This document shows positions 11,895 to 31,219 of a DNA stretch of 64,000 bases, piece by piece (within the stretch, counting starts at the first letter, position 1; every line of letters starts with the position of its first letter). Under the pieces are notes generated by a model. That model was not told where the DNA came from and made no database searches. It saw only the letters and a program-made list of their open reading frames with translations. Location: NCBI GenBank assembly GCA_963761305.1, contig CAVXGK010000001.1:1727417-1791416 (forward strand), read 5' to 3'. Made by a program: the position numbers and the translations under genes. Source of the stretch: an uncultured Gemmatimonadaceae bacterium. GTDB taxonomy: Bacteria; Gemmatimonadota; Gemmatimonadetes; Gemmatimonadales; Gemmatimonadaceae.

Positions 11895-11984
11895 GAGAGG
11901 CCGACCTGTCGGCGACGTGCATAGAAAAGCAGGACTTCCTATCCATGCCCTGCCAGATGTGTATAGAAATCTGGCATTTCGGAG

Positions 11985-13157: not shown

Positions 13158-13177
13158 GCGTAGCCAAGGAAAGGGAC

Positions 13178-13225
13178 TTAAATAAGGCGTACGGTTATTT
13201 AAAGATACGCCGTTCCCTTAAATAG
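13178..13225. promoter_or_regulatory. Candidate operator upstream of fic
   Basis: TTAAATAA-N9-TTATTTAA inverted repeat (13178-13202) plus a third half-site TTAAATAG (13218-13225) in otherwise GC-rich DNA. Confidence 0.5.
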
Positions 13226-13230
13226 GCCAG

Positions 13231-13407
13231 ACTCAGCTTCGGGCCATGCGTCCCGCAGGTTCCCCCTGCGACGCAGCACGCGGCCGGGCACCCTCTGTTC
13301 CTCGGTAGGCTTACTCAAGGTGTGTACTTATCCCTAACTAAGGGCACGCCCGAGTAAAGGATACCGGGACCGCCGCCCCTGTGCGCTCCCGCGCGCTTCG
13401 GCTAAGT
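13231..13407 (+). ncRNA. Candidate structured ncRNA or long hairpin
   Basis: Nested helices: CGGTA/TACCG, TTACTC/GAGTAA and GGTGTGTACTTA/TAAGGGCACGCC (two U-G wobbles on the + strand), plus a 5' hairpin GCGTC..CGCAGG/CCTGCG.ACGC. Confidence 0.35.
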
Positions 13408-13617
13408 CGGAAGCTCGACGTAGCCCGCGGCGGTCGTGGGTCGGGGAATCGGCAGTCCGGCAAGTCGGAGCTCCTCGAGATGCCCTTCCACCGCTTCTCG
13501 CATGTTCGCCTCGACCTCGGTGACCGTGCGTCCCGTTGACGCGCAGCCGGGAAGATCCGGCAAGTAGCCCGAGAAGCCGGAGTCTGTCGGTTCGATGAGA
13601 ATCACGTATCGGCTCAT
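13402..13617 (-). CDS. hicB: HicB-family antitoxin (short form)
   Basis: YVILIE...FSGYLPDLPGCASTGRTVTEVEANMREAVEGHLE...PIP signature. Confidence 0.9.
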   Translation of the reverse strand: MSRYVILIEPTDSGFSGYLPDLPGCASTGRTVTEVEANMREAVEGHLEELRLAGLPIPRPTTAAGYVELPT

Positions 13618-13922
13618 GTCGGCTCCTCCTTCTTGATCTCATCGTACATCGCGTCCGGCGCGAGATCGACGCCGTTCGGCCACGTAACCGCACCGTGAGC
13701 AACGCCGACCCGCGCAAACATCGCGGGATCGCGGAGCTGTTCGAACACGCCGGCATCGTCGCTCGCAACGAGACGCGATAAGTCCACCTCGCCGCGAGTT
13801 CCGTCCGCGAATGTCACGAAGAGGCGATAGCCGCCCGCTGGGCGAACGTCCGTGACATGCCACGGCACAGGGGAACTCAGTCCAGCGGCGGAATCTGCAT
13901 CAGTGCCTGGTTGTTTGCGCAT
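13614..13922 (-). CDS. DUF2442-domain protein (putative antitoxin)
   Basis: VTDVRP...YRLFVTFADGTRGEVDL...VTWPNGVDLAPDAMY. Confidence 0.85.
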   Translation of the reverse strand: MRKQPGTDADSAAGLSSPVPWHVTDVRPAGGYRLFVTFADGTRGEVDLSRLVASDDAGVFEQLRDPAMFARVGVAHGAVTWPNGVDLAPDAMYDEIKKEEPT

Positions 13923-13934
13923 CGTTGAAGGGCC

Positions 13935-14240
13935 TTACAACACGGGTCGGCGCGATTGTAGCCAGTTGTTGAACGAGCCTTTGCTCTCCCCGGACTGTGC
14001 CCCGCGCAGGAGGTTGTCGACGCTGATGTCCTCGTCGAGATCGGGCCAATGGATGCCCTCACCGCGGCCGATGAATCGCCAATTGTTTCGTTCAGCGGGC
14101 GTCGCGGCAGCGAGGCGAGGATACCAGCCGAGCGGCACGGCAATGCTGCGTCCGTCCGCGAGATCGACGGTCAGACTGGTTGCGGACAGGCGAACTGCCT
14201 CGGCAGTGGCCGGCCGAGGTTCAATCGGCGAAGTACTCAT
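13935..14240 (-). CDS. DUF2442-domain protein (putative antitoxin)
   Basis: LADGRSIAVPLGWYPRLAAAT...GEGIHWPDLDEDISV. Confidence 0.9.
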   Translation of the reverse strand: MSTSPIEPRPATAEAVRLSATSLTVDLADGRSIAVPLGWYPRLAAATPAERNNWRFIGRGEGIHWPDLDEDISVDNLLRGAQSGESKGSFNNWLQSRRPVL

Positions 14241-14457
14241 CCCAGCGGCTCAGAAGGAGTTGCTCGTGTTCTCGGACTACCAGAAGGATACGAGCCAGTT
14301 CACCGCGTGAGAAGTTACCGCCATTGTGCACGCGAACCGGGTCGAGCCACAGCTTTGCCCGATTGGCGTCTCGCTCCACGTGGATATGCGGCGGCTCCGT
14401 ACGATCGCCGGCAAAAAAGAAGCAGCGGTAGGGGCCGGTGCGAAGGACAGTGGGCAC
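14221..14457 (-). CDS. DUF4160-domain protein (putative toxin, partner of DUF2442)
   Basis: MPTVLRTGPYRCFFF...EPPHIHV...AKLWLDPV...WDEYF; GTG start at 14457; overlaps the DUF2442 gene. Confidence 0.9.
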   Translation of the reverse strand: MPTVLRTGPYRCFFFAGDRTEPPHIHVERDANRAKLWLDPVRVHNGGNFSRGELARILLVVREHEQLLLSRWDEYFAD

Positions 14458-14534
14458 GGCGTCCACTGTACAGCGACGACTCGCCTGCCTCGGCATCAAA
14501 ACCGCGGCCTTCGGTCCCGGTCGTTGCCGTCAGT

Positions 14535-14885
14535 TCAAACGCGTAGAACAAGCATCGCTCCGACGCCGATCAGAATACCCAGCAACACCCACGGCCACAC
14601 CGCCCTCCCGCGCGATGGACGAGGCGACTCGAGGCCAAGCCAGTCGGGGACAGGCGACGGTTCGCGCGTCAGATCCTTGGGCTCGGACCGTGCATGGCCG
14701 GCCGAGTCGAGTCGCGTCCGGCTGCTTACGCCAGTGCCGGGGATGCCAAGATTGGCATAAGTGCCCCGGCTGCCCACGTTGACGCTCGCGCCGCGCGGGC
14801 CAATGGTTGTGCTGATTCCCCGGCGCGACAGGTTGATCCGCACGCCGGGAAGCAGCCGGATGGAGCGATGAAACCGGAAGCCCAT
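14535..14885 (-). CDS. DUF4236-domain membrane protein
   Basis: MGFRFHRSIRLLPGVRINLSRRGISTTIG...GIPGTGVS; C-terminal TM helix; GAGGAG RBS. Confidence 0.9.
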   Translation of the reverse strand: MGFRFHRSIRLLPGVRINLSRRGISTTIGPRGASVNVGSRGTYANLGIPGTGVSSRTRLDSAGHARSEPKDLTREPSPVPDWLGLESPRPSRGRAVWPWVLLGILIGVGAMLVLRV

Positions 14886-14922
14886 GGGCGCTCCTCAATA
14901 GATGGCCGAACTGTATGCGGGC

Positions 14923-15588
14923 TTAACGAGCCTGACCGCCGGCGTTGAAAGCAACGGCGAGCTGAAAACTCACGACCCCGCCGCTGAGACCGAGCGGCAC
15001 GCTGACAGAAGGCTGTATGGTCAGCACTCGGCTGACAACGAACCCCGCGCCCACCGTGGCAACACCATAGTTCTGATTGGCAGAACTTGAAAACCCTCCG
15101 CCGCTGGCGGTGGCCTGCGCGATGACGTACGAGCCGCCAACGAACGGGACGAAATCGAATCCGGGGCTGTGGAGCGCGACGCCGCCGATCGCGCCGCCAA
15201 AGCTGAACCCATGGGTCGCTATCGACACACTGCCAAACCCGGTATCGAAGTTCGGTCCCGTTTGATACGCGAATCCCACCTCGGGGCAAAACTGAACGGT
15301 GCGTTGAGGATTGAGATCGACTGCAAAACCCGCGTCCCCGCCTACGGAAAGTCCGCTGCCCGACACGTCTTTGTATTGAACACTCGAGACGGTGCCGCTC
15401 ACGAATGGACCGCTTGGCGCGCCGAACGCGATTTGACCGCCATAGCTCTGCGCATCGCTGTCGACACTGAGTCCGGCGCCGAGCCGTACGGGGCCGGCCG
15501 AGAAGGACGCGGCTCCTTCACAGACTTGAGCGTGCGTTTGTGAGAACGGCGCCAAACTAACGAGTACAGCTACGTGAACCATTCGCAT
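14923..15588 (-). CDS. Secreted protein, probable small outer-membrane beta-barrel
   Basis: Signal peptide from ATG 15588 (..THA-Q); alternating Gly/aromatic beta-strands. Confidence 0.6.
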   Translation of the reverse strand: MRMVHVAVLVSLAPFSQTHAQVCEGAASFSAGPVRLGAGLSVDSDAQSYGGQIAFGAPSGPFVSGTVSSVQYKDVSGSGLSVGGDAGFAVDLNPQRTVQFCPEVGFAYQTGPNFDTGFGSVSIATHGFSFGGAIGGVALHSPGFDFVPFVGGSYVIAQATASGGGFSSSANQNYGVATVGAGFVVSRVLTIQPSVSVPLGLSGGVVSFQLAVAFNAGGQAR

Positions 15589-15635
15589 TTTAGAGCCCTT
15601 TCCGTGGGTGGGTGAAGATCCGTCGATCGGTTGAC

Positions 15636-16081
15636 TCATCGGCTGGCACTCCAAGTACCGGTGAAGACGTACGTCGCACCGCTGATTGCGATCGGACAAT
15701 TCAGGGTTCCGCTCATTCGGTTTGGCGGACTCCCCGAAACGGTGCCGACGATCGTGCACCCACCAGCGCTGTTGAATGACACGGAGGTGCCAGAGATTTG
15801 ACCGCCGGTCCATGAGGTGCCCGCCAGGCTCGACGTGCTCGCGGAGCCAAGCACCGAACACGTTTGACTTCCGCTCGCCGCGATCCGCCAAACGAAGCGC
15901 CGGTTTGCGTAAAGTTGATCACGACCCCCTGAGCGGAACACGATGCACTCAACTGGCTGTTGCTGAAGTTGAGTGAGACCGTCCACTGGCCGGAAATGTC
16001 GAGCGGCCCGGACGGAGCCGTGGAGTCGCTGCCGCAGGCGATGCCCGCAACGAGGCAAAGAAGACCAAGACGTCGGAACAT
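15636..16081 (-). CDS. Lipoprotein of unknown function (frameshift near 15880)
   Basis: MFRRLGLLCLVAGIAC lipobox, GSDSTAP linker, 'ISGQW' start and 'TGTWSASR' end reached in a second frame. Confidence 0.65.
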
Positions 16082-16139
16082 TGATTTCTTGAGTGGGTGG
16101 TTGATGGGTGGCACGAGTCAATCGACCGATCGAGCGTGG

Positions 16140-16625
16140 CTACTTGGCACCTTTCGCCTCTGCGGCCTGTTTGATCTTCTGCTGCAGCGACGTTTCCCAG
16201 GTCGCTCTGGTAGAACATTCCTCATTTACGATCGACTGGTCGGCGAGCACGCGGGACTTGCCGATGCGCGTCCATCGCACGGTGATTCGTAAAGAGGTAT
16301 GAGATGAATCGCCTCGCACCAACGCGTTGTACGTCGCGTCGGTTGGGTACACGGGCCCCACGATCGCATCCTTTCCGCAGTCCGCCGCGTCGCCGAGGGA
16401 CGGGCCGACCTTGAGGGCGTCGGTCGCGATCAATCCAGATGAGCGATCGATTGTCTTGATCGGAATATTGCTTCGCGCGAACTCGTCGATGACGGCGTCC
16501 CACGTCCGGCCAAACGACGCGCCAATGTCGATCGCATTATGCGGAGTCGGCGCCGCCGGTGGCGTCGGGAGGCAACCAACGGTGCACATCAGGGCCGCGG
16601 TAAGGACGACACGTGACCTGAGCAC
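16140..16625 (-). CDS. Lipoprotein of unknown function
   Basis: Lipobox TVGC; 'ASFGRTWDAVIDEFA...IPIKTIDRSSGLIAT' resembles BamC/DUF3568-like helix-grip folds; two additional Cys. Confidence 0.7.
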   Translation of the reverse strand: MLRSRVVLTAALMCTVGCLPTPPAAPTPHNAIDIGASFGRTWDAVIDEFARSNIPIKTIDRSSGLIATDALKVGPSLGDAADCGKDAIVGPVYPTDATYNALVRGDSSHTSLRITVRWTRIGKSRVLADQSIVNEECSTRATWETSLQQKIKQAAEAKGAK

Positions 16626-16675
16626 GCATTCCTCGCATGGAAGAGAGTTGTTGAACTTGCGAACTCTCGACTCTC

Positions 16676-16697
16676 AACGTACGAGAACCCTCTGACA
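16676..16697 (-). promoter_or_regulatory. PafBC-type promoter TGTCAG-N10-TACGTT
   Basis: Minus strand reads GAC TGTCAG AGGGTTCTCG TACGTT GAGAG, ~50 nt upstream of the 16625 start; near-identical to 25149-25170. Confidence 0.75.
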
Positions 16698-16706
16698 GTC
16701 GGGATA

Positions 16707-16910
16707 CTGACTTCCGGAACGGCGCTGACTTCCAGACGGCGCTGACTTCCAGACGGCGCTGGCTTCCGAAGCGCGCTGGCAGAGGAACCACGTGCGGAGT
16801 TTTCGCTCCTTTTCGGACGTTCGCGCCCTTCGGAGGTTCGCGCCCTTCGGGAGTTAGCGCCTCATGGAAGTCTGCGCCGCTTGGGAGTTAGCGCCCCTCG
16901 GAAGCTGGCG
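16707..16910. repeat. Two inverted arrays of degenerate 17-bp tandem repeats
   Basis: About 4x CTGACTTCCAGACGGCG (16707-16775), then about 6x GG(A/G)AGT(T/C)AGCGCCCYTC-like units (~16815-16910) that resemble its reverse complement. Confidence 0.8.
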
Positions 16911-16945
16911 TCGTTCAGAATCAAAGAGGGTAGTTGAATCAACTC

Positions 16946-17920
16946 TCAACGTACGTCCGCAAGCATCACCACAAGCCGCTCCCGAATCGCCTTCCTCGCC
17001 TCCGGCGGCGACAAAATCTCGGCCTCACGACCGTATCCCAGCACGTGCCTCACCCCCCAATCGAGATCCGCCATCGGATACTCGACCACGAACGACCCAT
17101 CCGCCTCCTTCGTCCCCCGTTCCCGCTCCTCGATCCACCGCGCGATCTTTGCCGAGAAACGGACACGAAGCCTGACCGGCGCATCGGACACGAACACAGG
17201 GCCACGCTCGAGCTGCGCGTCGATCGCACCCAGGTCGGGCGGCGGACACTTCTCGGCCAACACCTTCGCCGACTCGATCCGATCCACCCGAAAGACCCGA
17301 ATCCCGCTGCTCCGCTCACAGTACGCCACGAGATACCAAACCGGCCCCGCCAGAATCAGCCGATACGGACAGATCACCCTCGCACTCGACTCGGCAGCAC
17401 TCCCGCGCCGATACGAGATTCGAATCTTCTGCCGCTTGCCGAGCGCCTCGCGCACGACCGCGAGCTGAACGCCGCCGACGCTCTCTGTCGAGACGGCATA
17501 CGAACCATCGCCCATGAGCGCGCCCGGCAGCTTCGCCACCGCTTTACGAATTCTCTCGCGCGCCCTATCAATGGCGCGCCACTCCGCCGGCCCTCGCTCG
17601 GCGCGCAGCATCGCGAGTCCTAAGTCCAGCGCGTGCAGCTCCGCGATCGTCAATCGCATCGGGCGCCGGAAGTGGTCGGTTTTGACGGACACACTGTCCG
17701 CCTCGATGAACACCTCCAGCCCTTCGACGAACCCGCCGGGCGTGTCGTAGCGCCCGCCGATCGACGTGAGATCGCGCACGACCGTCTTCGCGTCGACGCC
17801 GAGCATCGCCGCCATCTCTTCTATAGAGTGCTCCTCGCCGTCGGCGACGACCGGCACCAGCGCCAGCAGCCTCTTCAGCTGCGCCGACGCGTCGACCGCC
17901 CCGCCCGACGCACCCTTCAC
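16946..17920 (-). CDS. pafC: PafC-like HTH-WYL-WCX transcriptional regulator
   Basis: N-terminal HTH (RLLALVP...AAMLGVDAKTVVRDL), RPMRLT, WYL motif 'VWYLVAYC...RVFRVDRI', WCX C-terminus; start overlaps the stop of the upstream WYL gene. Confidence 0.85.
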   Translation of the reverse strand: MKGASGGAVDASAQLKRLLALVPVVADGEEHSIEEMAAMLGVDAKTVVRDLTSIGGRYDTPGGFVEGLEVFIEADSVSVKTDHFRRPMRLTIAELHALDLGLAMLRAERGPAEWRAIDRARERIRKAVAKLPGALMGDGSYAVSTESVGGVQLAVVREALGKRQKIRISYRRGSAAESSARVICPYRLILAGPVWYLVAYCERSSGIRVFRVDRIESAKVLAEKCPPPDLGAIDAQLERGPVFVSDAPVRLRVRFSAKIARWIEERERGTKEADGSFVVEYPMADLDWGVRHVLGYGREAEILSPPEARKAIRERLVVMLADVR

Positions 17921-19008
17921 CTCTCCGCCTCATACAGCGCCAGCGTCTCGCGCGCCGACTGCCGGAATGCGTCCGTGACCGCCGGCGGCGATACAGGTTT
18001 GGCCGCTCCCGCAAACGACAGGATCCAACGAACGAACCGGTCCACCGACTTCACTCGGAAGCTGCGCCGATCCCGATGGCCCGGCACCGCCGCGCCCAAC
18101 TGCAACCACGGAGAAACAGCCCCGGTTTGCGTCGCGAACTCGACGACCGCCTCCGTCGCATCGGTGTCTCCCAGCTCCCACGCGAGACGCGACGTCGCGT
18201 GCGTCCGCAGATTCCACCCCTCGGGCAGCGCGAAGTCGGCCGTCTGCGGACGCGCCTTGTTCACCGCGAGGTCGCGCATCCGGCTGACGCGAAAGTTCTT
18301 GATCGCTCGCGCCGCCGGCTCGTGCGCCGCCAAGTACCAATGCGAATTCAGGAAGAACATCCCGAGCGGCTCGACCGTCCGGCTCTTCGTCGAATCGCCG
18401 GACATCGAGCGATAGACGAAGGTCAGCCGCTTGCGCGACAGCAGCGACTCCTCGAGCGCCGGCAACACGGCCGGATCGATTCGCTCGGCTCTCACAACGA
18501 CATCGTCGTGGTCGTGATCGACGATTCCAGGCACATCAAACGCCAGCTTCCGCACCGCCGACCGCGCCTGCTCGGCCAGCATCGCGTCGCCGAGTTTCTG
18601 CACACGCTCGGCGGCGGCGCCGACCGCCGCGATCTCGTCGGGCTCGAACGCCAACTCCTGCACGGAGTGGTAGCCGTCCTTGTCGACCCGACTCGGCGAC
18701 ACCTTTCGCCCGCTCTGCACGACGGCGAGATACGGCAGATAAAAGTCCGCCGGCCGCAGCCGATACCGCTCGATCTCCCCGTCCTTGGCGATCGTCTCGA
18801 TCGGCACGCCGAACGCGAGCAGCTCCGCCTTGTCGCGCTCGAACATCCGCTTGACCGTCGCCTTCTCCTTCTCCGTCGCGCGCTTGGCCAGGCGATAGGC
18901 CGGCACGTCTCCCGAGAGCTGCGTGAACGTCGCGCCGAATTGGTAGCGGAGGAGCGCGACGAGGACATCGGTCCAGCGCTGGAGCTTTGCCGACGTCACG
19001 CGAGTCAC
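17917..19008 (-). CDS. pafB: PafB-like HTH-WYL-WCX transcriptional regulator
   Basis: 'KRMFERDKAELLAFGVPIET' matches the PafB recognition-helix signature; 'RTVEPLG...HWYLAAH...FRVSRM'; GTG start at 19008 after GGGAG. Confidence 0.85.
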   Translation of the reverse strand: MTRVTSAKLQRWTDVLVALLRYQFGATFTQLSGDVPAYRLAKRATEKEKATVKRMFERDKAELLAFGVPIETIAKDGEIERYRLRPADFYLPYLAVVQSGRKVSPSRVDKDGYHSVQELAFEPDEIAAVGAAAERVQKLGDAMLAEQARSAVRKLAFDVPGIVDHDHDDVVVRAERIDPAVLPALEESLLSRKRLTFVYRSMSGDSTKSRTVEPLGMFFLNSHWYLAAHEPAARAIKNFRVSRMRDLAVNKARPQTADFALPEGWNLRTHATSRLAWELGDTDATEAVVEFATQTGAVSPWLQLGAAVPGHRDRRSFRVKSVDRFVRWILSFAGAAKPVSPPAVTDAFRQSARETLALYEAER

Positions 19009-19132
19009 GCTCGGCCTGCTCCCTTCGGCGATGAGCGTCGAGGTGATACGGCTTCGAGCGGTCGACAGTCGACAAATATCTTGTGGACGAACTTTGAAAG
19101 ACGATGTTCGCTGAGACCCAGCGATGCATCCA

Positions 19133-19714
19133 TCAGCCGAAGCGCACCTCGCCACTCCTCGACGGTGTCAGGGCCATGCATCGCCGGTCGTTCGTAAAGT
19201 AGACAAGCGCAAGATGCGCATCGATGTCATTGTCCTCGCGCAAGAACTGCAGGAATGCCAAACGATTTGCGTACTGAAAGAAAGGGCTGCTAGCCCAATC
19301 AACCTTAGAGCGCGGAGCCAAAGACCTTCGCGTACGGCCGAGAGATTTGCGAATGGTCTCAAGGGATGTCCCCGCCGCTCTTGACGCGCCCGAAAGAAGC
19401 TCTGGAATGTGAGCTTTGGCCTCTAACAGAACGTATTGGTCATCTATCACCGCGATCGCATCCCACACCGGGCCACGGCGAGGCCAGAAGTCCGCGAGGG
19501 GGCGGCGGCTAGGCTCTCTGCCAATTTGACGAAAGACCTCGCCATCGCGCGCCTCACGAAACTCAGGAGCATGCGGCGATTTCCAGGATACTTCGGTGTT
19601 GGGTCGGCCGACCGCGCTCGACAATGCGGTTTCAAGTGCCGGCATCCGCGTCGACACCGCTCGCTGTATCCAAGCTTGGCTGCCCCGCTCGGCTGACTGC
19701 GTGTTTTCGGCCAT
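19133..19714 (-). CDS. Putative PD-(D/E)XK-superfamily nuclease (C-terminus probably frameshifted)
   Basis: FWPRRGPVWDAIA...LLEAKAH, followed by FQYANRLA. Confidence 0.55.
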   Translation of the reverse strand: MAENTQSAERGSQAWIQRAVSTRMPALETALSSAVGRPNTEVSWKSPHAPEFREARDGEVFRQIGREPSRRPLADFWPRRGPVWDAIAVIDDQYVLLEAKAHIPELLSGASRAAGTSLETIRKSLGRTRRSLAPRSKVDWASSPFFQYANRLAFLQFLREDNDIDAHLALVYFTNDRRCMALTPSRSGEVRFG

Positions 19715-19766
19715 AGTCGCTCCAGAAGTGGTTGGTATCGACGCGTTGGCGGGACCTACCGCTGAC

Positions 19767-20861
19767 CTATTTGATCACGGTCTCGATGCCAAGCTGGTCA
19801 TGCTCGACGACGGCGCGCGGAAAACGCGCCGGAAGCAACGCCAGCAAATCACGGTGTATCCCCGACCACGGCTGTGACAAGTTCAGAGTGGCGGCCAGGA
19901 AGGGATGACCGAACAACGCAACGCTCACCCGCAGGCTTTCCGTCGTTCGCGGGTAAACCAATATGCCTCCCACCCGAGCTCTATCCTCACCGGGCGTGAG
20001 ATGGCTCATGTAGGCGAACATCTGGTAGAGATTCGCCGAATGTAGGCTGCTCTTCGTGAAGTGCTCACCCAGTGCGGCGGAATAGTACTTGGCGTCGACA
20101 ACGATGGTCTGAGTCCTGTCGTTCAAGACAATGTCGGTACGCATTTCAGGCAGGTACGCCAGATCTTCATCGGCCCCGCTCGCTCGCCAACCGAAGCGCG
20201 GTGCGTTCACCTCAAAATGCCTCTGCTCTTTGGCGAAAAAGCGCCGGAGGAACTTCTCGAAGAGCCCCGCCATCTGCTGATCGTCCCTCGTGAAGTCACG
20301 GAACTCGACCTCGCCGGTGTCCTCGTTGACGAGCAGGTTTCGATGGACGATCTCACACACATCCAAGAGGAACCCGTAGTACGCATTGTTGCGGCCGAGC
20401 ACGACCCTACGGAAACTCTGTCCAGTGATTCGCGTTTCTTGTACCCCGGGCATTCGGCGGTACAGATCCCTGAGTCGTTCCGCTAGGTCCGGGTTCAAAT
20501 CGGCCGCGGCGGCGAGACGCCGCAGCGTCGTCTTGACGATTCGGTTGTGCACCACGTCGGGCGAGAGCTCATCGAAGACACAGTGGGCACGCGCGCGGGC
20601 GAACGTCGTGCGTTTGATCGATGCCCCGAGATCCAATCTCCCTCTGATTCCCGCAATTTCATCCTCGTCGGTGACGTACGTTCGGTCTAGGCCGCGCTTC
20701 AGCAAATGCGTCAGCCCACCGATGAGAACACGGGCTAGCAGGTCCTGAAGCCGCATTTCCGGCGTCACGGTCACGCTCGCGAGTTCGGCCTCCTCCAGTG
20801 TGTCCCACGCATAACAGAGCAGGTAGTAGATGTTCTCGATCGGAATGACGGCTGGAGGCAC
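19767..20861 (-). CDS. mcrC: McrC-family restriction endonuclease subunit
   Basis: IPIENIYYLLCYAW, LFEKF, MRTDIVL, VDAKYY and NLYQMFAY; directly downstream of mcrB. Confidence 0.92.
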   Translation of the reverse strand: MPPAVIPIENIYYLLCYAWDTLEEAELASVTVTPEMRLQDLLARVLIGGLTHLLKRGLDRTYVTDEDEIAGIRGRLDLGASIKRTTFARARAHCVFDELSPDVVHNRIVKTTLRRLAAAADLNPDLAERLRDLYRRMPGVQETRITGQSFRRVVLGRNNAYYGFLLDVCEIVHRNLLVNEDTGEVEFRDFTRDDQQMAGLFEKFLRRFFAKEQRHFEVNAPRFGWRASGADEDLAYLPEMRTDIVLNDRTQTIVVDAKYYSAALGEHFTKSSLHSANLYQMFAYMSHLTPGEDRARVGGILVYPRTTESLRVSVALFGHPFLAATLNLSQPWSGIHRDLLALLPARFPRAVVEHDQLGIETVIK

Positions 20862-20864
20862 GCG

Positions 20865-23092
20865 TCAATCCGAGAGAATCTTGAGACACTCTGCGACCGT
20901 AGTGCGATCGTCGAACCAGTATTCGTCCAGCAAGGGAGCGATCTCCTCCCGCACGACGCCGGCGTACCAGGCCGACGACTGGGTCACAGGACCGGTCGGG
21001 CAGAAGTAGCTGTGGCCGATGGCAAAACCGGGGCCCAGGTTCTTGTGATCCGCCGCGATCCGCCTGTTAACCTCACCGACACGTTCGAGAATCCGATCGA
21101 TGACCGCGTCGTCAACGCCTCGCTCGAGGAGCATGCGGCGGAACGGCCGGGCTCGCGAATGCGGGTTCGAGCGTCACGAACGCGAATCGCCGCCGCAGAG
21201 CGTAATCCACCATCGCTAGCGAGCGATCGGCTGTGTTCATCAAGCCTATGATGAAGACATTGTCTGGGACATAGAATGTGTCACTCGCCGATTCAGCGTA
21301 CGTGAGGGGGATGGCGAACTCCGGCCCCCGCTTGTCGCCCTCAATCAGAAGGAGCAGTTCGCCGAATACTTTGCTCAGATTGCCGCGGTTGATCTCGTCG
21401 ATGACGAAAACGTGCGGCTCGCCGGGTCGAGACTGCGCTCGGCGGCAGAACTCGTGGAAGACGCCGTTGCGCAGCGCGAAACCACCACCGCCATTTGGGC
21501 GCCATCCTTGAATGAAATCCTCATAGGCATAGCTCTGATGAAACTGCACCATCTGCACGTTGTCGGGCGATTCGGCCCCGACCAGCGCATACGCCAGCCG
21601 TCGCGCGAGAAATGATTTGCCGACTCCCGGAGAGCCCTGGATAATCAAATTTTTCCGGCGGCGGATGCTGGCGAGAATCTGTTCTACTGTGTCGCGGGAC
21701 AGGAAAGCCTCCCGCAGGATGTCTTCAACCCCGTAGGGCTTCGGTTCGGCAAGGGCCGGGACGCCGGCTCCGCTCTGCTCGCGAACGACCTCGCGAACTG
21801 CCTGATACTGCGTAATGTCGGTGAGGGTCTTGAGCGGGAGCTGCGCGGTTTCGGGAAGCGTCCAGTTGCCCTTCTGAAGCCACTCGACGCGGCGGACGTT
21901 TCGGAAGTCGGGTCTGGACGAGTCGTATTGGTACTCGCTGGCGATGCGACCGCGGCCGAGGATGCGATCGCGGCCTTGTTTCACGTAGACCTCGTCACCG
22001 ACGGCAATGTCGTGACAGAACTGGTAGCAGGCGAGCGAGTCGTTCGTGGGATCCTGCTCGCGGTCATACAGCCGCTTGATCGCCGCACGAATGTCGTCCT
22101 GCTTCGAATACTGCCCCAGGTCGCCGAGCTCATCCCAGCCGATCGCGACGAGCCCCTGCTCTAGGAATGCGGGCCATCGATCGGCGCCTTGCCCCGCACC
22201 GATCGCCCACACTCGGGCCTTGGACGGGTAGGGTCTGGCGGGCAATGGCTCACTAATCTGCGTCGCGTCGGCCTTCTCGGGCGGATCGGCGTCGCGCCAC
22301 CGCGCAGCGATTTCAGGTACTTCGTAAAAGTCGACCCAAGTCCCCGGTCGTTCCGCTTCCAAGGCGTGTCGCAAGTGCCAGAGCCGTCGATCGCGGGCCA
22401 ACGCTGTCGGTGCGCGATCTTTCAAGTCCAGCGCCTGCGCCTGAAGCATCCCGGCGAATGCCCTCTCAACGCTTTTTTTGTCCGACTTCGAGGAGATTCG
22501 CTCGAACTCGTCGGGAAAGAGAAGGTGAAGGAGCATATGGCGGAGTTGCCGGGACGTTGCATCAGGCAACCGGTCGAACCAGTCGGCGAACCCCCACGGA
22601 TCCTTGAGCAGCGATGCGCGCTCCGAGACATCCAAGGCCTTTATCGCCTCGGTGAACCGAACTAGCAGGAACAGCTCGAAAGGGCCGGTAGTTGTTGTAG
22701 CCCATGCCCCCGCTGCCAATTCCCCTCTCGAAGACGTCGAGCATTCGATTGGGGTCGCGCAGTGGAGTGCCGGACCAATCCCACACTGTGCGGACGAGAT
22801 TGACCTTCGTGGCGCGCTTGAGATTGCTCGGGAACAGCATCATCACCCAAAGCATCTCCGCGGCCAGCTGCGTCGCTTCCGTCGGAGCCGGCGCCAGCTG
22901 ATCGCGCAGCTTTTCTTCGAACGTGCGATCACCCTCGTCCGGCTTCTCAACGAAATGTTGGACGAGGTCGCGGGCGTGCTCAATTGTCCAAATGGCGCCC
23001 GCCTGGAAGATCGACCCGTCGGCGACGAGGCAATCGCGTTTCCATCGATCGGCTGCGTCGTAGATGACGGTGTTCTCAGTTAGTCGCGCCAC
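20865..23092 (-). CDS. mcrB: McrB-family AAA+ GTPase with extended N-terminus and an EVE/PUA-like domain (frameshifts near 22685 and 21140)
   Basis: [44 protein letters not shown] and IGHSYF, spread over ORFs 22562-23092, 21112-22719 and 20865-21134. Confidence 0.92.
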
Positions 23093-23166
23093 GGAATCCG
23101 AAAGGTTTCAGGTGACTGTAGTGGAAAGAGAGCGAATGTGGCTGGCGCGGGCGTCTGATCATCGGG

Positions 23167-24330
23167 CTATCGGCCTGAACGGGCAAGCTCAGAGAGAAGG
23201 CCCGTCTGTCCGATGCCCAACACCCGATCGCGCCAACGCTGGGCATCCGACACCGCGACCGCCTTGCTGTGGGCCGCCGGATTTCGGACGTCAGACAATT
23301 CCCTCAGCACAGCGGGGAGGCTGGCCGTGAACCACTCTCCGCTGGCACCGAGTCGGCGCTTGAGTGCCTGGTTCAGGTGCTGCGCCTCGCCGATGAGGCG
23401 CGCCAGCGCACCGAGAGGCCAGTGTTCGCCGGCTGTTGGATCAACGCTACGTCCATCGACGTTGGTCAGACGATCGGATGTGGGCACCCCAGACAGCCCG
23501 CGGCGGAGGATGATGTTCGTCTGAAGCTCGATTGCCTTTGCGAAGTCGAGGACGACGGGCGAGAAGTCAAACGCGGGGTCCCTTCTGTGGGCGCGAAAGA
23601 GTGATTCAGCTGTCGCAACGAACGTGCGAACCGCCGGATCAAGCGCGTGCCAAGTTCTCTGGCCGACGACGTTGTCTCGCAATTCCCCTTCGAGTTCGCC
23701 GATACCAGCTCGCTCGGCGTCGAACTCGACCCAATACCGCCCTTCGATCAGCTTCTCTCGAACGTCCGGCTCGAAGTACCGTGCGCCATCGTCCCTAGTG
23801 ACGATCAGCGGCAGTTCTACCATTCCGCCGTAGATCGAGACTGGTCGGTCATTGTAGCGGGTGTTGCGCAACTTCTTGAGCTCCTCGATGACAGCGATGG
23901 TATCGTCCAAAATCACGCGGCGAATGTCGAATAGTTTGAACCAGCAGTCGCACCGGAGATCGGACGTTCGATAGAAAGCTGGAACGTACGCCTCCTCTCT
24001 TTTGTCGGCGCGCAGATCGTTAGCGATGATCTCGCCGACGTGCCCGACGTATAGCGATCGGTAGTCTGTCAAATAGAGATGTACCTCTTCGTCGCCATCG
24101 GCCTCCTGTCGAAGCACCTCATCCATGGCGAGAATGTCGTCCAGGTGCGGTAACGGCGCTTGGCGGTTTGGAGACTTGGCCTTGCCCCACCAGACGAACA
24201 CGTCCTCTTCCTCGAGTTTTCCGTCTCGGTGCGCGCGAGCGTGTTGAAGAAGCAGAGCCACGCTCGCGCTCATTGCATCGGCCGCGTAGGCCGGATTCCA
24301 CACGCTGACCAGGTGACGCGCGCTTGTCAT
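23167..24330 (-). CDS. Uncharacterised protein with C-terminal HEPN-like Rx4H motif (recalls the HP0729 family)
   Basis: WNP.Y, WWGK, LYLTDYRSLYV and SIYGG in the N-terminus; helical C-terminus with KAIE...RNPAAH. Confidence 0.6.
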   Translation of the reverse strand: MTSARHLVSVWNPAYAADAMSASVALLLQHARAHRDGKLEEEDVFVWWGKAKSPNRQAPLPHLDDILAMDEVLRQEADGDEEVHLYLTDYRSLYVGHVGEIIANDLRADKREEAYVPAFYRTSDLRCDCWFKLFDIRRVILDDTIAVIEELKKLRNTRYNDRPVSIYGGMVELPLIVTRDDGARYFEPDVREKLIEGRYWVEFDAERAGIGELEGELRDNVVGQRTWHALDPAVRTFVATAESLFRAHRRDPAFDFSPVVLDFAKAIELQTNIILRRGLSGVPTSDRLTNVDGRSVDPTAGEHWPLGALARLIGEAQHLNQALKRRLGASGEWFTASLPAVLRELSDVRNPAAHSKAVAVSDAQRWRDRVLGIGQTGLLSELARSGR

Positions 24331-24522
24331 TCCGTGCTCCCGGGGACACTGGGCGGTTCAGACTGCCGGCGTGACGATATCGGTGACATCGACGCGGGCG
24401 GCGAGCCAAACGGGACTATTGGTCAAGTCCGTTTGGCGAACCAGCAGTCAGAATCGGCCGTGAATGTGCACCCCAGCCGCCGATCCCGCGAGACGCCTGG
24501 CACGTATCGCAACATCAGCGTT

Positions 24523-25110
24523 CTAATTGCTCTTCTCTTCGGCCGTTACGATTGCCTCGGCCGGTTCGGCTCCGGCGAAAACCACGCTCATCAAGCCCGG
24601 GAAGTAGTGTTCGCAGCACCCCAGCGCCGTGTGAACCATGCGTCGGATCATCTCGGGGACGATCGCCCCACCGCTCGCGTCGATGGTCAGGCGAAACCGC
24701 ATCTCGCCGTCGCCCGGATCCAACTCGAAGTTTCCGGTGCGTAGCCGCCAGTTGGCCCGATTCAGGTAGTCCAAGGCGCGGGCGCGTTGTGGCTCGGGTG
24801 CGTTGACGCCGATCTCCGCCACGCAGAGCAGTACCGGCCGGTCATCGTATGCCTTGAAGCACAGGCGATAGGATGCGTGGATCGCTCGCACGGAACAGCA
24901 TATCTGATTGACGCCAAGGAGATGTGATTGCCACTGGAATTCGCCGAGGACTCCGGCGACCGTCGCAATCAGCGGGTGCGGAACCATCGCCTCCTGACGT
25001 TCGACGACTCCGCTAAGCTGTTGCCCTGTCAGCGTGTCGAGCCAGATCTCTGTTCCATCGTCGTCCCGGGAAAGACGAACGATTCGCTGCTCATCCTTCT
25101 TTGTCTCCAA
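24523..25110 (-). CDS. YbjN-domain (T3SS-chaperone-fold) protein
   Basis: LNRANWRLRTGNFELDPGDGEMRFR...YFPGLMSV. Confidence 0.8.
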   Translation of the reverse strand: METKKDEQRIVRLSRDDDGTEIWLDTLTGQQLSGVVERQEAMVPHPLIATVAGVLGEFQWQSHLLGVNQICCSVRAIHASYRLCFKAYDDRPVLLCVAEIGVNAPEPQRARALDYLNRANWRLRTGNFELDPGDGEMRFRLTIDASGGAIVPEMIRRMVHTALGCCEHYFPGLMSVVFAGAEPAEAIVTAEEKSN

Positions 25111-25148
25111 GGGTACCTCGCTGAGAAAGCGTTGAAACCCGCTCTCTC

Positions 25149-25170
25149 AACGTACGGCACCCCTCTGACA
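25149..25170 (-). promoter_or_regulatory. PafBC-type promoter TGTCAG-N10-TACGTT
   Basis: Minus strand reads GAC TGTCAG AGGGGTGCCG TACGTT GAGAG, ~40 nt upstream of the ybjN-like gene. Confidence 0.75.
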
Positions 25171-25216
25171 GTCGACTCGTGGATGCGGTTGCGGGTCGCG
25201 GTGCGCGCAGCCAGAC

Positions 25217-25238
25217 TGTCAGACCCCACCGTGAGATT
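25217..25238 (+). promoter_or_regulatory. Divergent PafBC-type promoter TGTCAG-N10-GAGATT
   Basis: GAC TGTCAG ACCCCACCGT GAGATT GAG, 23 nt before ATG 25262; the -10 has one mismatch to TANNNT. Confidence 0.55.
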
Positions 25239-25261: not shown

Positions 25262-28200
25262 ATGCAACCTGACGGCGCCGCCGTTCTCTACTCCGCCAAG
25301 GATCTCATCAACTTCCTTGGCTGCCAGCACAGCACCGCTCTCGACCTCCAAGTCGCGGCGCGCGCGCTGCGCGCGCCGGAAGGTGTCGAAGACGGCTACC
25401 TCGACCTCCTCAAAGCCAAGGGTAACGCGCACGAACGCGCCTATCTCGAAAAGCTGAAGGCCGAAGGCAGGTCCGTGCGCGAGATAACGCGCGTCGAGTC
25501 GCTGGACGAAATGACCGCGGCGACGCGTCAGGCGATGCGTGACGGCGTGGACGTCATCTACCAGGGTGCTCTGCGTTCCGGGCCGTGGCACGGGTATTCG
25601 GATTTTCTCTTGCGCGTCGACGTTGCGTCCGACCTCGGCAACTACTCGTACGAGGTCGCCGACACCAAGCTGGCCCGCACAGCACAACCCAAGCACGTCG
25701 TACAGCTGTGCATCTACTCCGAACTGGTCGCGCGCGAGCAGGGGCTGCGCCCGAAGCACACGCATGTCGTGCTCGGCGACAGCAGCGCGGTGACCTTGAG
25801 GGTCGAAGACTACCGCCACTATGTGGACGTCGTGCGCGAGCGGTTCGAAGCGTTCGCCACCGGCAAGCACGAGACGGAAGCCGAGCCTTGTTCGCACTGC
25901 GAGCTTTGCCGCTGGTCGGAGCGCTGCACCGAGGAGTGGGAGGCGACCGACAGCCTCCGACTCGTCGCACGGCTCAGCGGCACACAAGCCACAAAGTTGC
26001 GCGCCGCGGGGGTGACGAACCTCCGCGAGCTGGCTGTTGTCGACGATCGCCAGATCCCGAAAATGCGGGCTGAGACCCTCCAGCGCTTGCGCGCGCAGGC
26101 TCGGCTTCAGGACGTGAAGCGCAGAACTGGTGAGAACTGCGTCGAAACGCTAACGCTGGAACCGCACCGCGGTTTCGCGCGCCTGCCACAGCCGCACCAA
26201 GGCGACCTCTTCTTCGACATGGAGGGCGATCCGGTCTACTCGGCGGATGGCTCCCTGGAATACCTGTTCGGATTTCACCACGTGGACGCCGGCGAAGAAA
26301 AGTTCACGCCGTTTTGGGCGCGCGACCGTGCCTCGGAGAAGAAAGCATTCGAAGACGCCCTCGATTTCATCACGGCGCGGATTGCGCGGTTTCCCGACGC
26401 GTTCGTCTACCACTACGCCGTCGTACGAGGAAGTCGCGCTCAGAAAGTTGGCGCGGAAATACGGCACCTCGGTGTCGGCTGCGGTGGCCGAGCCGGACAA
26501 GAAACAGGTAGACGCCATCAAGCGGCTGGCACAGCAGTACGGCACGCGCGAGGACCAGGTTGACGACCTGCTCCGAGGCCGCAAGCTGGTAGACCTATAT
26601 AAGGTAGTCCGAGAGGGGATCCGAGACCTCCGAGCCATCATACTCGCTCAAGAACCTCGAGGCGTTCTACGCCCCGGAGCGGACGGAGGTGATCACGAGC
26701 GGCAGCGACAGCATCGTCGCGTTCGAGCGCTGGCTCGCGCTGGGCGACGAGACGCTGCTCCACCAAATCGAGGAGTACAACGCGTTCGACTGCCGCTCGA
26801 CGAAGCTCTGCCGCGATTGGTTGCTGTCGCTGCGGCCCGTCCGAGGTGGAGTGGTTCGATCCCAAGAAAGCGGACGCGCAAGACGCCGAGAAGGAAAAGG
26901 AGCGCGAGGCGAAGCGCCGAGCCAGCGACGCGCGCATTCTTGAACTTCGCCAGGCGCTCGTTCTGAACGTCTCCGACGACGAACGCCCGTGGCGCGAGCT
27001 CCTCGGTTACCTGCTGGAATACCACCGCCGCGAGGCGCGGCAGGAATGGTGGCAGTTCTTCGCACGCCGGGACGCGCGTGTCGAAGAATTGATCGAGGAT
27101 GCTGACTGCATCGGTGGGCTGATCGTGGACACATCGGTGCCACTCAGCGGCCTGAGAAGAAGTCGAAGGTTTGGACGCTACGCTTTCCGGAGCAGGAGCT
27201 GAAGCTCGGCGCCGGCGACAAGGTGGTGCGCGCGGATACTGGTGAGGGGCTCGAGATCATGTCGCTCGACGAGCGCGCGTGTACACTGGAGCTCAAGGTG
27301 GGTCCGTCGCGCGAGCCATTGATCGACGGCATCTCGTTGATCCCGCCGCGGCCCGATGAACGACACCACTCAGCGCGAGGCGATCGTCAGGTATGCCGAG
27401 GCGGTTATTGCCGGACGCGAGAAGGACTACGCCGCAATAACGAGCATCGTTCGGAAGGATCCGTCCGAGGCTGACGGACGCGGTCATCTTGGGCGGAGGC
27501 GGCACGTCGGACTTGCTGTCAGGGACAATCGACGCGGTCGGACGAATGGACAACTCGCACCTGGTCATTCAGGGCCCGCCCGGCACCGGCAAGACATTCA
27601 CGTCGGCACATGCGATCGTCGAGCTGTTGAAGAATGGCAAGCGCGTCGGGGTCACCGCCTTTACGCACAAGGCGATCAACAATCTGCTGAATAAGATCGA
27701 AGAGGTTGCCCGGGAGCGCGGCGTGAAGTTCACGGGCGTGAAGAAGTCCTCGAGCGACACCGAACAACGGCTCGGCGGTTCAGTCATAGTAGACACGGAC
27801 GACAACGCCGTCGCGACCAGCGACGACTATCAACTCGTCGCCGGTACGGCGTGGCTGTTTTCACGGCCGGAGCTTGACCGCAGGCTCGATTACCTGTTCG
27901 TGGATGAAGCCGGCCAGATGAGCCTCGCGAGCGTCGTGTCATGTGGCGCGAGCGCCAGGAACATCGTGCTCGTGGGAGACCAGATGCAGCTCTCGCAGCC
28001 GGTCAAGGGCGCGCACCCGGGCGGGAGCGGCGTCTCTGCGTTGGATCACCTGATGGGTGACTGGGCCACGGTGCCGGAGGACCGTGGGATCTTTCTCGCG
28101 AAGACATGGCGCATGCAACCCGACCTGTGCCGGTTCGTGTCGGATGCCTTTTACGACGGGCGGCTCGAGTCGGTGGAGTCCGCCGCGCAACAGAAGCTGA

Positions 28201-28711
28201 TTCTTTCGGGCGAACGCTCGCGGCGCGCTCGCGCCATTCGGGCTGCGATTCGTGCCGGTGGAGCACGAGGATCGGTCGCAGAAGAGTGACGAGGAAGCCG
28301 ATCGGCTGAACGGCGTATATCGTGAGCTGCTCGGACAATGCTGGGTGAATCAGCGCGGCGAGACGAAGTCGATCACCATGGATGACATTCTCGTGGTGAG
28401 CCCGTACAATATGCAGGTGAATCTGCTGAAGCTCGTGCTGCCGAACGGCGCTCGCGTGGGCACCGTGGACAAGTTTCAGGGCCAGGAGGGCGCCGTGGTG
28501 CTGATCTCGATGGCGGCGTCGAGCGGCGAGCACATTCCGCGCGGGATAGAGTTCCTGTTCGTCGCGAAATCGGTTGAACGTGGCTATGTCTCGTGCTCGT
28601 TGCCTGTCGACCATTCTGGCGTCGCCGCTGCTGTTGGGCGTCACGTGCGGCATTCGGTTCGAGCAGATGCGGCTGGCCAATGTCATTTGCTGGTTCGCGT
28701 CGTATGTCTAA
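25262..28711 (+). CDS. TM0106-family RecB-like nuclease fused to an RNase-H-like domain and an SF1 (DNA2/NAM7-like) helicase; several frameshifts
   Basis: SAKDLINFLGC; DFL...YEVADTK...QLCIY; CxxCxxCxWxxxC; FFDMEGDP; YNAFDC; QGPPGTGKT; VDEAGQ; VGDQMQL; SPYNMQV; GTVDKFQGQE. Confidence 0.9.
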
Positions 28712-28850
28712 GGCGGCCAAAATATCGGTCGACCCTCACAGCTTTCCCCAGTCGGAACGACACCGCCAACTAGGCAATGCGCCACGACCGCTGCAGCGCG
28801 GCGGATTGCACGGACGGTCGCCCGCACAATGAGCATGCAATCGCCCGACG

Positions 28851-29282
28851 ATGGATCGAATCAATAGACGGCGGCGTTCGGCAAACATGGCGGCGATCCG
28901 TGGTCGAGATACGACTCCGGAACGCGCTGTAGCGGCCGCGCTCAAACGTCTGCGATACACCTTTCGGACTCACGCGCGCGAACTACCCGGTCGACCTGAC
29001 TTTGTCCTCCCTCGTCGGCGAATGGCCGTTCTCGTTCACGGCTGCTTCTGGCACCGCCACCGAACCTGTCGATTCGCGTATACGCCGAAATCCCGCATCG
29101 ATTTCTGGATGGCGAAGTTCGCCGAGAACGTTGCCCGCGACCGCAGGGTACGGCAGGCCTTACGGCGCGACGGCTGGCGTGTGATCGAAATATGGGAGTG
29201 CCAGACTGACGAGCCCACGCGACTCGATCGGCGCTTGAAGCGTGCGATCAAGGGGCCCGTAGAGCGGGTTGAAGACCAGTGA
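28851..29282 (+). CDS. vsr: Very-short-patch repair endonuclease
   Basis: RSANMAAIRGRDTTPE, LPGRPDF, HGCFWH and IWEC. Confidence 0.95.
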   Translation: MDRINRRRRSANMAAIRGRDTTPERAVAAALKRLRYTFRTHARELPGRPDFVLPRRRMAVLVHGCFWHRHRTCRFAYTPKSRIDFWMAKFAENVARDRRVRQALRRDGWRVIEIWECQTDEPTRLDRRLKRAIKGPVERVEDQ

Positions 29283-30772: not shown

Positions 30773-31219
30773 GCGCTCCTTTCACTCAGTTCACTGCGGC
30801 GCAGGTCGTTGAAATCCTGATGCAGTTGTTTCAGAGCGGGGCGGACGTCACGCCAGCTCAAGTCCAGGAACGGGTCCAACAATTCTTGGAAGCGCCGGGT
30901 TTCGGCCACCTGAAGCCCGAGATCGCCTCGATCGTCGACGAAATACTGCGGCGCATCAAAGTCGTGATTGGTGCGGCGGCCGTTCTTGATGACGATGACG
31001 ATCACATCGACTGGCTTGAGGACGCGGACCGATCGAGCTGGCGTCTGTGGCCGCGGCTTGAGGATTATCTGAAGCGCATCGACAAATTGCCGCCCGCCGT
31101 CGTCGGTGAGGTCGGCCGATCCACGGATCTCGTACTCAAACGGTTGGAAAGCCCTGAACGCGATGGACAATGGGACCGACGCGGCTCGTGGTAGGACATG
31201 TTCAGTCTGGAAGACGACC
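30769..31219 (+). CDS. N-terminal fragment of a Z1-domain SF2 helicase-like/endonuclease protein, truncated at the junction
   Basis: W.LW.R...YL, STDLVLKRLESP, then RRG-LVVGHVQSG-KT across frameshifts; follows the MORC gene as in known Z1 loci. Confidence 0.8.

Follow-up and report, generated by a model that had tools for sequence, protein, structure and literature searches.

A PafB/PafC-type WYL pair with a small set of candidate -26/-10 promoters in Gemmatimonadota

The 64-kb stretch of an uncultured Gemmatimonadaceae genome analyzed here (the window) holds, within an island rich in nuclease and defence genes, a tandem pair of WYL-domain genes and three intergenic promoter-like sites beginning with TGTCAG. 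Based on sequence comparison, we conclude that these genes correspond to pafB and pafC in Gemmatimonadota. On the appearance of single-stranded DNA (ssDNA), the pair likely switches on itself plus a group of clustered nuclease genes and predicted anti-phage genes. A probability of roughly 0.8 is given to the reading that a PafBC heterodimer senses ssDNA and activates -26/-10 promoters as in mycobacteria. An earlier sequence-only reading of this DNA had proposed such a regulon driving a defence island outside Actinobacteria; its core inference stands, while its emphasis on defence fits the source genome and only partly the family. The host indeed lies outside Actinobacteria, as the named homologs of the window PafB are from Gemmatimonadaceae and Gemmatimonadales. 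Whole-genome counts refer to the source genome G000 (5.21 Mb, 93% complete) and coordinates without contig name to the window.

The pair consists of two overlapping genes.

17917-18999, minus strand: pafB counterpart with winged helix-turn-helix (wHTH), WYL and WCX domains, assigned by Pfam WYL and WCX matches, PDB matches, tree position and key residues
16946-17920, minus strand: pafC counterpart with HTH_PafC, WYL and WCX domains, overlapping pafB by 4 nt

No further WYL match besides these two was found in G000. The start of pafB probably lies near 18999-19008 (18999 or 19008) rather than at 19155, since the closest homologs are about 360 amino acids long. In PDB, the best matches of the window PafB are PafBC and PafB; the window PafC matches M. 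smegmatis PafC best (7p5x_AX, E-value 6.7e-21), and A. aurescens PafBC also ranks ahead of DriD (1e-8). For comparison, 160 related pafB loci with a total of 1.66 Mb were used, namely the 80 best from genomes and the 80 best from metagenomes, out of more than 500 in each case. In the great majority of related loci pafB is followed by pafC, and one of them, L033, holds two pafBC pairs. Eleven open reading frames (ORFs) of more than 600 amino acids in the loci are long or fused and include PafB-PafC fusions; these natural fusions suggest that the two proteins form a heterodimer.

Residues with roles described in PMC8635444 and PMC11804915 were counted in 104 full-length PafB and 93 PafC sequences from Gemmatimonadota-clade loci. 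The DNA-reading R46 is kept in 102 of 104 PafB sequences and R50 in all of them, as are K52, Y76, R181, Y196 and R214; R211 is found in 101. In PafC, R201, R204 and W250 are invariant (93/93 each). Of these residues, R181, Y196, R211 and R214 of PafB and R201 and R204 of PafC belong to the WYL domains and bind ssDNA in the described proteins. The helix-turn-helix of the window PafB, which holds the RMFERDK helix already noticed in the sequence-only reading, has R46 and R50 as well as K5, R8, K52 and Y76, which contact the DNA backbone. Position 56 is L in the window (R in 90/104), and the window PafB has K for R208 and A for R204. A FastTree phylogeny was computed with 88 rows, which came from 13 sources labelled actinobacterial-type, 28 of the 46 candidate Gemmatimonadota-clade sources and, as outgroup, 7 other WYL proteins. 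In this tree, PafB of the Gemmatimonadota clade and actinobacterial-type PafB fall on one side of a branch with a support of 99. Six of the 13 actinobacterial-type sources have Pup-ligase, proteasome or tat neighbours, one is Nonomuraea, and six are unlabelled contigs grouped by similarity. Pfam, PDB matches, the tree position of PafB and key residues support the tandem PafB/PafC-like pair.

Across the phylum, pafB was detected in 90 of 301 sampled genomes (about 30%), with a patchy distribution. A search for a Pup ligase in the 93% complete G000 found none, and no pafA/prc/tat synteny was seen in Gemmatimonadota pafB loci. A scan of viral contigs gave no pafB relative; plasmid records yielded a single PafB-PafC pair, located on a Nonomuraea record of 11.9 Mb. 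Two pafB loci, L082 and L023, are labelled as something other than Gemmatimonadota (Polyangiales, Kuenenia). In the tree, L082 falls within the Gemmatimonadota sequences, and the two may represent transfer or misbinning.

Three intergenic sites of PafBC type were located in the window.

16697-16676, minus strand: site 1, TGTCAG-N10-TACGTT, exact pattern, heading a lipoprotein/envelope cassette
25170-25149, minus strand: site 2, TGTCAG-N10-TACGTT, exact pattern, heading ybjN
25217-25238, plus strand: site 3, TGTCAG-N10-GAGATT, divergent from site 2, heading a TM0106 nuclease-helicase

Their full forms are TGTCAG-AGGGTTCTCG-TACGTT-GAG (site 1), TGTCAG-AGGGGTGCCG-TACGTT-GAG (site 2) and TGTCAG-ACCCCACCGT-GAGATT-GAG (site 3, whose -10 GAGATT is non-consensus and weaker). 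The candidate starts at 16625, 25110 and 25262 are 50, 38 and 23 nt away, respectively, and a canonical -35/-10 promoter was looked for at all three sites and not found. The sites are exact in the sequence, on the strands and at the distances from gene starts claimed earlier, and they exceed chance expectation: GACTGTCAGA has three copies in the window compared to 0.09 expected, and none of 100 shuffles attains three. With one mismatch allowed, most of this excess is lost (6 vs. 2.9 expected in the window). In G000, the decamer GACTGTCAGA has five copies, three of them inside the window, and TGTCAG-N10-TANNNT has three, two of them inside the window. Scanning G000 with a matrix built from 76 sites of other loci, the nearest relative L018 left out, placed sites 1, 2 and 3 at ranks 1, 2 and 3 (26.5, 24.3 and 21.2 bits; next 17.5); with an earlier, stricter matrix they were at ranks 1, 2 and 4. 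The trailing GAG, claimed as a shared feature, is present at all three window sites and is lineage-specific, as nothing is conserved past the -10 element in the 76 related sites.

In the related loci, the spacing is strongly preferred. TGTCAG and TANNNT are separated by 10 nt in 26 cases, compared to three for N8, two for N9 and one each for N11 and N12. TGTCAG-N10-TANNNT reaches a density of 15.6 per Mb in the 160 loci vs. 0.58 in G000, and TGTCGG-N10-TANNNT adds 19 matches. The consensus of the 76 sites is (C/T)TGTC(A/G)(G/C)A, a C/G-rich stretch and TA(T/C)NNT, the hexamer being mostly TGTCAG, TGTCGG or TGTCAC. Using leave-one-locus-out matrices and at least 12 bits upstream as threshold, genes at unit heads in 138 Gemmatimonadota-clade loci were scored. 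A site precedes pafB in 38/78, vWA in 11/11, the PEGA lipoprotein in 8/10, ARPP in 5/5, AddB in 7/18, YbjN in 3/6, HP0729-like genes in 3/14, and RmuC and DUF2779 in 3/5 each. The Ser/Thr kinase had 0/22 and all other genes 17/508; operon-internal pafC (0/93) and addA (0/25) had none, and the antisense control for pafB unit heads gave 10/78. Of 79 sites, 15 are followed at 4-8 nt from the hexamer by the ATG of an ORF, vs. one at 9-16 nt, as expected if leaderless mRNA starts from a real -10. In the nearest relative L018, ybjN is preceded and pafC followed by the same sites, with AddB/AddA-like genes upstream and other genes in place of McrBC. Hence the motif has the geometry of PafBC promoters, heads transcription units, co-occurs with pafB and often precedes pafBC itself, in agreement with the sequence-only reading. 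Over the whole genomes of 61 relatives, the loose pattern TGTCAG-N10-TANNNT does not rise above background, and a genome-wide regulon was, therefore, rejected.

Several findings weigh against the reading that this pair acts as in mycobacteria. On the polymerase-facing side, the wing tryptophan W70 of PafB is W in only 1 of 104 wings; the position of PafC D62 is occupied by E in the window, but this holds for only 8 of 93 sequences, and most have Q, S or R. The RpoD-like sigmas of G000 keep R442 and have Y for R416 and E/D for S446, as judged by offset mapping from ranges aligned with M. smegmatis SigA (71-314 to 223-465). The DNA-reading side and the promoter geometry thus appear conserved and the polymerase-facing side diverged, which makes a changed RNA polymerase contact the main rival. 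In that case PafBC would activate by ordinary recruitment or through one short RpoD paralogue, not by mycobacterial sigma-4 adaptation. G000 has five short RpoD-like sigmas (about 290 amino acids), all with LYFG or LYYG in region 4, and no long RpoD among the six best region-4 matches translated from it.

C1:184652-185617, C1:294432-295307, C2:1416096-1417046, C2:2383667-2384647 and C2:2501673-2502761: short RpoD-like sigmas of G000

On the other hand, the distance from -26 to -10 is the same as in mycobacteria (PMC8635444) and would place PafBC where sigma 4 would sit, and sigma R442 is kept. A different contact is considered unlikely, and we infer that activation in Gemmatimonadota would proceed by sigma adaptation; the diverged contacts lower certainty on the mechanism rather than on orthology. 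A complex prediction of the PafC helix-turn-helix with sigma region 4 scored 0.00 and was counted neither way. A site at C2:2501685 of G000, before an RpoD-like sigma gene, was rejected as a chance or housekeeping match, having less than 13 bits and recurring in genus members without a pafC match.

The remaining adverse points concern the tree, the sites and their distribution. Each PafC set lies on one side of a branch (98 and 93), and their union is not separated from two outgroup rows; the HTH_PafC match and the best PDB match agree with a PafC identity. About half of the pafB unit heads are below 12 bits, and pafB of the window lies about 6 kb from site 2 without a site of its own. A second DUF2779-HP0729 pair and a second TM0106 gene in G000 also lack an upstream site. 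A strict pattern was searched in the sampled genomes (90 with and 211 without pafB). It gave 68 sites in the pafB-positive genomes (45 of 90 with a site; reversed control 21), compared to 44 in the pafB-negative ones (38 of 211 with a site; control 48). As the pattern was derived from loci overlapping this sample and kin are not independent, a Fisher P value was disregarded. Half of the pafB-positive genomes are accordingly without a strict site. In two pafB-negative genomes, strong sites stand in front of genes of regulon type (DUF2779 in G303, ARPP in G078), which may count against strict dependence or reflect incomplete bins. The excess over control is seen in pafB-positive genomes only.

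A second rival, which we rate as less probable again, is that the pair represses the same sites and that ssDNA or ADP-ribose relieves the repression, similar to BrxR/CapW. A site often stands before pafB itself, as is the case with autorepressors, and sites 2 and 3, separated by 40 nt, are inverted copies of each other over 10 bp. BrxR and CapW are each a single WYL gene acting on an inverted-repeat operator at its own promoter; in the window there are two distinct genes and an asymmetric motif. ARPP, TY-Chap3, ARG and PARG units are found behind sites, and WYL factors beside ARG/ARPP/TY-Chap genes have been read as negative regulators (Iyer et al., 2022; PMC9503650). However, the site is asymmetric, has a fixed 10-nt link to the -10 element and is no palindrome; there is no -35 to block, most sites are single, and the PafB recognition helix is conserved with that of the activator PafB. 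The earlier statement that defence-linked WYL proteins are repressors also needs qualification, as DdaA activates defence genes, apparently without sigma adaptation (PMC12392091).

Very improbable is the third possibility, an alternative-sigma promoter or a site of another regulator travelling with islands. Many sites do read TGTCACA, which resembles the -35 of ECF41 promoters, and a few strong sites occur in genomes without pafB, but sigma 4 and sigma 2 together would need a spacer longer than 10 nt, and the ECF-sigma reading was rejected on this spacing. Positions 24-27, where an ECF -10 would lie, are not conserved, the GTC-reading arginines of PafB are near-invariant, and the restriction of the site excess to pafB-positive genomes argues against a regulator that merely travels with islands.

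Returning to activation by PafBC, the pair would bind ssDNA and then activate hybrid -26/-10 promoters of the TGTCAG-N10-TANNNT type, governing a small regulon that often includes pafBC itself. Its targets across the phylum would be double-strand-break processing (AddAB/RecBCD and RmuC-, DUF2779- and TM0106-type genes) and, in addition, a predicted modified-base reader/HEPN RNase, vWA proteins, TY-chaperones, ADP-ribose-removal units and exported lipoproteins. Such a damage-and-invasion response may stand beside the LexA/RecA SOS system without replacing it.

Gene neighbourhoods are in keeping with a small predicted regulon of pafBC, AddAB/RecBCD, a PUA-HEPN RNase, vWA, YbjN/TY-Chap, ARPP/ADP-ribose units and lipoproteins. 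Within 10 kb, the 138 Gemmatimonadota-clade loci, many of them on short contigs, contain AddAB/RecBC(D) 41 times, HP0729-like genes 25, vWA 15, PEGA 11, DUF2779 9, YbjN 6, RmuC 6, and TM0106, ARPP and ARG 5 times each; AddAB/RecBCD is the commonest pafB neighbour. An McrB relative was found in only 1 of 160 loci and McrC in none, pointing to McrBC as variable cargo. Consequently, "driving a defence island" fits G000, with McrBC and MZA behind its sites, but overstates the case for the family. AddAB is probably an ancestral target, because adnA is exclusively PafBC-dependent in mycobacteria (PMC8682763), and the regulon is thus better described as repair plus conflict than as defence alone.

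Distal sites were surveyed in 40 stretches (41 strict sites) of pafB-positive genomes and for 20 of the 44 pafB-negative sites. In pafB-positive genomes they precede PEGA (twice), vWA (twice), yraN-recA (twice), PTP-ARG, DUF2779 and RmuC, and also an SSB gene, an HNH gene, an SNase gene and a type I methyltransferase; many others look like chance. Among 60 genomes that have a pafB or pafC match, the yraN-recA site occurs in 3, which all belong to genus g27 (3 of its 8); among 30 without such a match it occurs in none. In these three (L268, L278 and L280, i.e., G322, G243 and G178), TGTCAG lies 10 nt before the leaderless -10 of yraN-recA, so that recA was apparently recruited into the predicted regulon in this genus. 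In G000, no site was found upstream of recA and lexA. Site-headed ADP-ribose units comprise TY-Chap3 with PARG, ARPP with ARG, and a PTP-ARG fusion (L040, L071, L209). Of 39 target proteins, site-headed or distal, five had a PADLOC match (DEDDh, an ATPase, RmuC, HNH and the type I methyltransferase); most targets are thus uncatalogued as defence genes.

The island genes around the three sites are listed below.

24523-25110, minus strand: YbjN (TY-chaperone), first gene after site 2 (Pfam YbjN, E-value 1.7e-12)
23167-24330, minus strand: HP0729-like protein with predicted N-terminal PUA/YTH-like reader and C-terminal HEPN RNase (R349-N350-x3-H354)
20865-23092, minus strand: mcrB in three overlapping frameshifted pieces (22562-23092, 21112-22719, 20865-21134)
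19767-20861, minus strand: mcrC (NCBIfam McrC, 338.4 bits, cut-off 338)
19133-19714, minus strand: putative restriction-endonuclease-fold ORF with a D...EAK motif, shorter than several look-alikes
25262-28773, plus strand: TM0106-family nuclease and SF1 helicase, frameshifted pieces
28851-31194, plus strand: vsr, mzaB (two pieces) and the N-terminus of mzaC, cut at a probable chimeric junction
14535-16625, minus strand: envelope cassette after site 1
16140-16625, minus strand: lipoprotein-like ORF of the cassette
near 15636-16121, minus strand: small ORF(s) of the cassette
14923-15891, minus strand: beta-barrel-like ORF of the cassette, by sequence, without Pfam match
14535-14885, minus strand: DUF4236 gene of the cassette
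16707-16904, no strand: two tandem-repeat arrays with a 17-nt unit, of 3.5 and 5.5 copies, separating pafC from site 1

No AddAB/RecBCD orthologue was detected in G000 by tblastn. As McrBC, TM0106 and MZA stand behind sites instead, the switch would drive a defence-rich island in this genome: McrBC, the restriction-type nuclease, TM0106 and the MZA fragment behind two divergent sites. We infer that site 2 also heads the co-oriented run down to pafBC, which lies on one strand with gaps below 200 nt. Read-through over about 6 kb, across McrBC, to pafB is plausible at near even odds and would bring likely positive feedback on pafBC; a terminator scan at shuffle level (17 vs. 13.6) was uninformative on this point. 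Vsr, mzaB and mzaC are possibly co-transcribed from site 3.

The HEPN gene postulated in the island is supported by structure prediction. The model of the HP0729-like protein (pLDDT 88.6) shows a PUA/YTH-like domain and a HEPN domain, the latter matching RnlA with Z 11.6 (root-mean-square deviation 3.3, 139 aligned), LsoA with 11.4 and the AF0298 HEPN with 10.4; for a helical bundle, such Z values alone are moderate evidence. RNxxxH is invariant in HP0729-like proteins (21/21), and by fold and Rx4-6H motif we predict the C-terminal domain to be a HEPN RNase. Foldseek with the model gave nothing at E <= 0.001 and weak YTH/ASCH rows only. The ORF at 19133-19714 has no match in Pfam, NCBIfam or PADLOC; Atlas look-alikes (0.94) include one named putative restriction endonuclease. 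PEGA lipoproteins, the outer membrane protein and DUF4236 come after sites in other loci, too. Beyond the envelope cassette (9772-14499) there are genes for a Uma2 nuclease, a GHKL ATPase, Fic and two DUF2442 proteins, none of which has its own site. The second DUF2779-HP0729-like pair lies at C2:3408421-3412077, close to where contig C2 ends; behind it, the small genes found at 13405-14240 of the window recur as near-identical copies. The second TM0106 nuclease-helicase is intact (C1:779842-784868), and its neighbours look like Ku and LigD by their N-terminal sequence.

Around site 1, relatives' contigs (X1 and X2, two runs of one study) are without the 17-nt arrays and join 16701 to 16962; the same contigs join 16081 to 16645. 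In those relatives site 1 thus follows pafC directly, and the first gene of the cargo is missing from the join, which weakly hints at a promoter that persists while cargo turns over. Around the pafC stop (about 16930-16955), the sequence is similar to site 1 in its -10 and leader, minus the TGTCAG box, as if left by duplication. By eye, short inverted repeats directly follow the -10 of sites 1 (16640-16676) and 2 (25120-25149); they were not reported by a repeat finder and are not conserved family-wide.

The assembly limits the island on one side. The GC content of the window falls from about 62% to about 53-54% near 31000, mzaC ends after 139 of 806 model positions close to this drop, and a GGDEF protein of the low-GC tail belongs to a 90% cluster with proteins of Candidatus Angelobacter, presumably a member of the Acidobacteriota. 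Based on these observations, the last 33 kb or so (31190-64000) are probably a chimeric join of foreign, Acidobacteriota-like DNA at the contig end, and the island is cut at that point. The reading frames of McrB, TM0106 and MzaB are split into frameshifted pieces, and relatives' contigs differ by 1 nt at 26624, 26836 and 28212, which fits assembly errors as the probable cause.

More tentatively, and with somewhat less than even confidence, PafBC may have become a self-amplifying immune alarm in Gemmatimonadota. AddAB/RecBCD or restriction nucleases would chew invading or broken DNA, the resulting ssDNA would activate PafBC, and PafBC would re-programme a non-actinobacterial RNA polymerase (short sigma, changed region 4) at -26/-10 promoters, yielding more PafBC and nucleases, a HEPN RNase that senses modified bases, and ADP-ribose-removal enzymes. 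Cargo such as McrBC, MZA and type I restriction-modification would be captured behind a portable 22-bp promoter, and single lineages would wire in recA by placing TGTCAG before an existing -10.

Sigma adaptation has been proposed for mycobacteria and other actinobacteria (PMC8635444) and is known to have been shown structurally in mycobacteria only. The pair and matching promoters in about 30% of the sampled genomes of another phylum, together with diverged sigma contacts, make the generality of the mechanism directly testable and indicate which of these contacts are dispensable. Further, the 22-bp site can serve as a discovery tag for damage- or phage-induced genes, the candidates being PUA-HEPN, vWA, DUF2779, ARPP, PEGA lipoproteins and DUF4236. 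It also calls into question whether the WYL regulators in ARG/ARPP/TY-Chap systems are repressors, as has been assumed. The accessible parts of PMC6789036 and PMC7617703 mention PafBC-like domain architectures in other phyla, not B/C pairs with such a promoter; the supplementary lists of WYL proteins that accompany PMC6789036 and PMC9503650 may contain the proteins described here. A literature search, with subscription papers thinly covered, found no work joining PafBC and Gemmatimonadota, none on a non-actinobacterial PafBC regulon, and none relevant to the HP0729/PUA-like/HEPN/WYL combination.

Among known systems, PafBC of mycobacteria and Arthrobacter (7P5X, 9FND, 6SJ9) is most similar. 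It shares the tandem overlapping wHTH-WYL-WCX pair with natural fusions (PMC8635444, PMC11804915, PMC6789036), the conserved R46/R50/K52/Y76 and WYL arginines, and a GTC-containing -26 box 10 nt before TANNNT; the mycobacterial promoter reads tGTCgg-N10-tA-N3-T without a -35 (PMC8635444). An end-resection helicase-nuclease is a target in both cases, adnA there and addAB/recBCD in the relatives here. In contrast, the present pair belongs to another phylum, with no Pup ligase detected in G000 and no pafA/prc/tat synteny, and has few promoters compared to about 150 genes, with recA mostly outside the regulon. Gemmatimonadota pafBC is often behind its own site, whereas mycobacterial pafBC is reportedly not induced (PMC7617703); box variants are TGTCAG, TGTCAC and TGTCGG, and W70 and the sigma-4 contacts have diverged. 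As Pup/proteasome linkage and recA control describe the actinobacterial setting, the Gemmatimonadota pair is best seen as a variant.

DdaA of Moraxellaceae is likewise a WYL activator over both DNA-repair and anti-phage genes, but it is a single gene whose motif lies about 50 bp upstream of where transcription begins, and its authors judge sigma adaptation improbable (PMC12392091). SiwR and DriD are ssDNA-sensing WYL activators, SiwR with a local regulon and use of the -26 region; both are homodimers, however, with SiwR on an imperfect palindrome (PMC10693628), and DriD matches the window PafC far more weakly than PafC does (1e-8 vs. 7e-21). BrxR (PMC9122601) and CapW resemble the present case as WYL regulators amid defence genes, but are single-gene repressors, in contrast to a B/C pair with asymmetric -26/-10 promoters. 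Finally, ARG-centred ADP-ribose conflict systems share ARG, PTP, ARPP, TY-Chap/YbjN, restriction endonucleases and helicases with the genes behind sites in related loci; one-component negative regulators are assumed there (PMC9503650), whereas the sites described here point to activation by PafBC.

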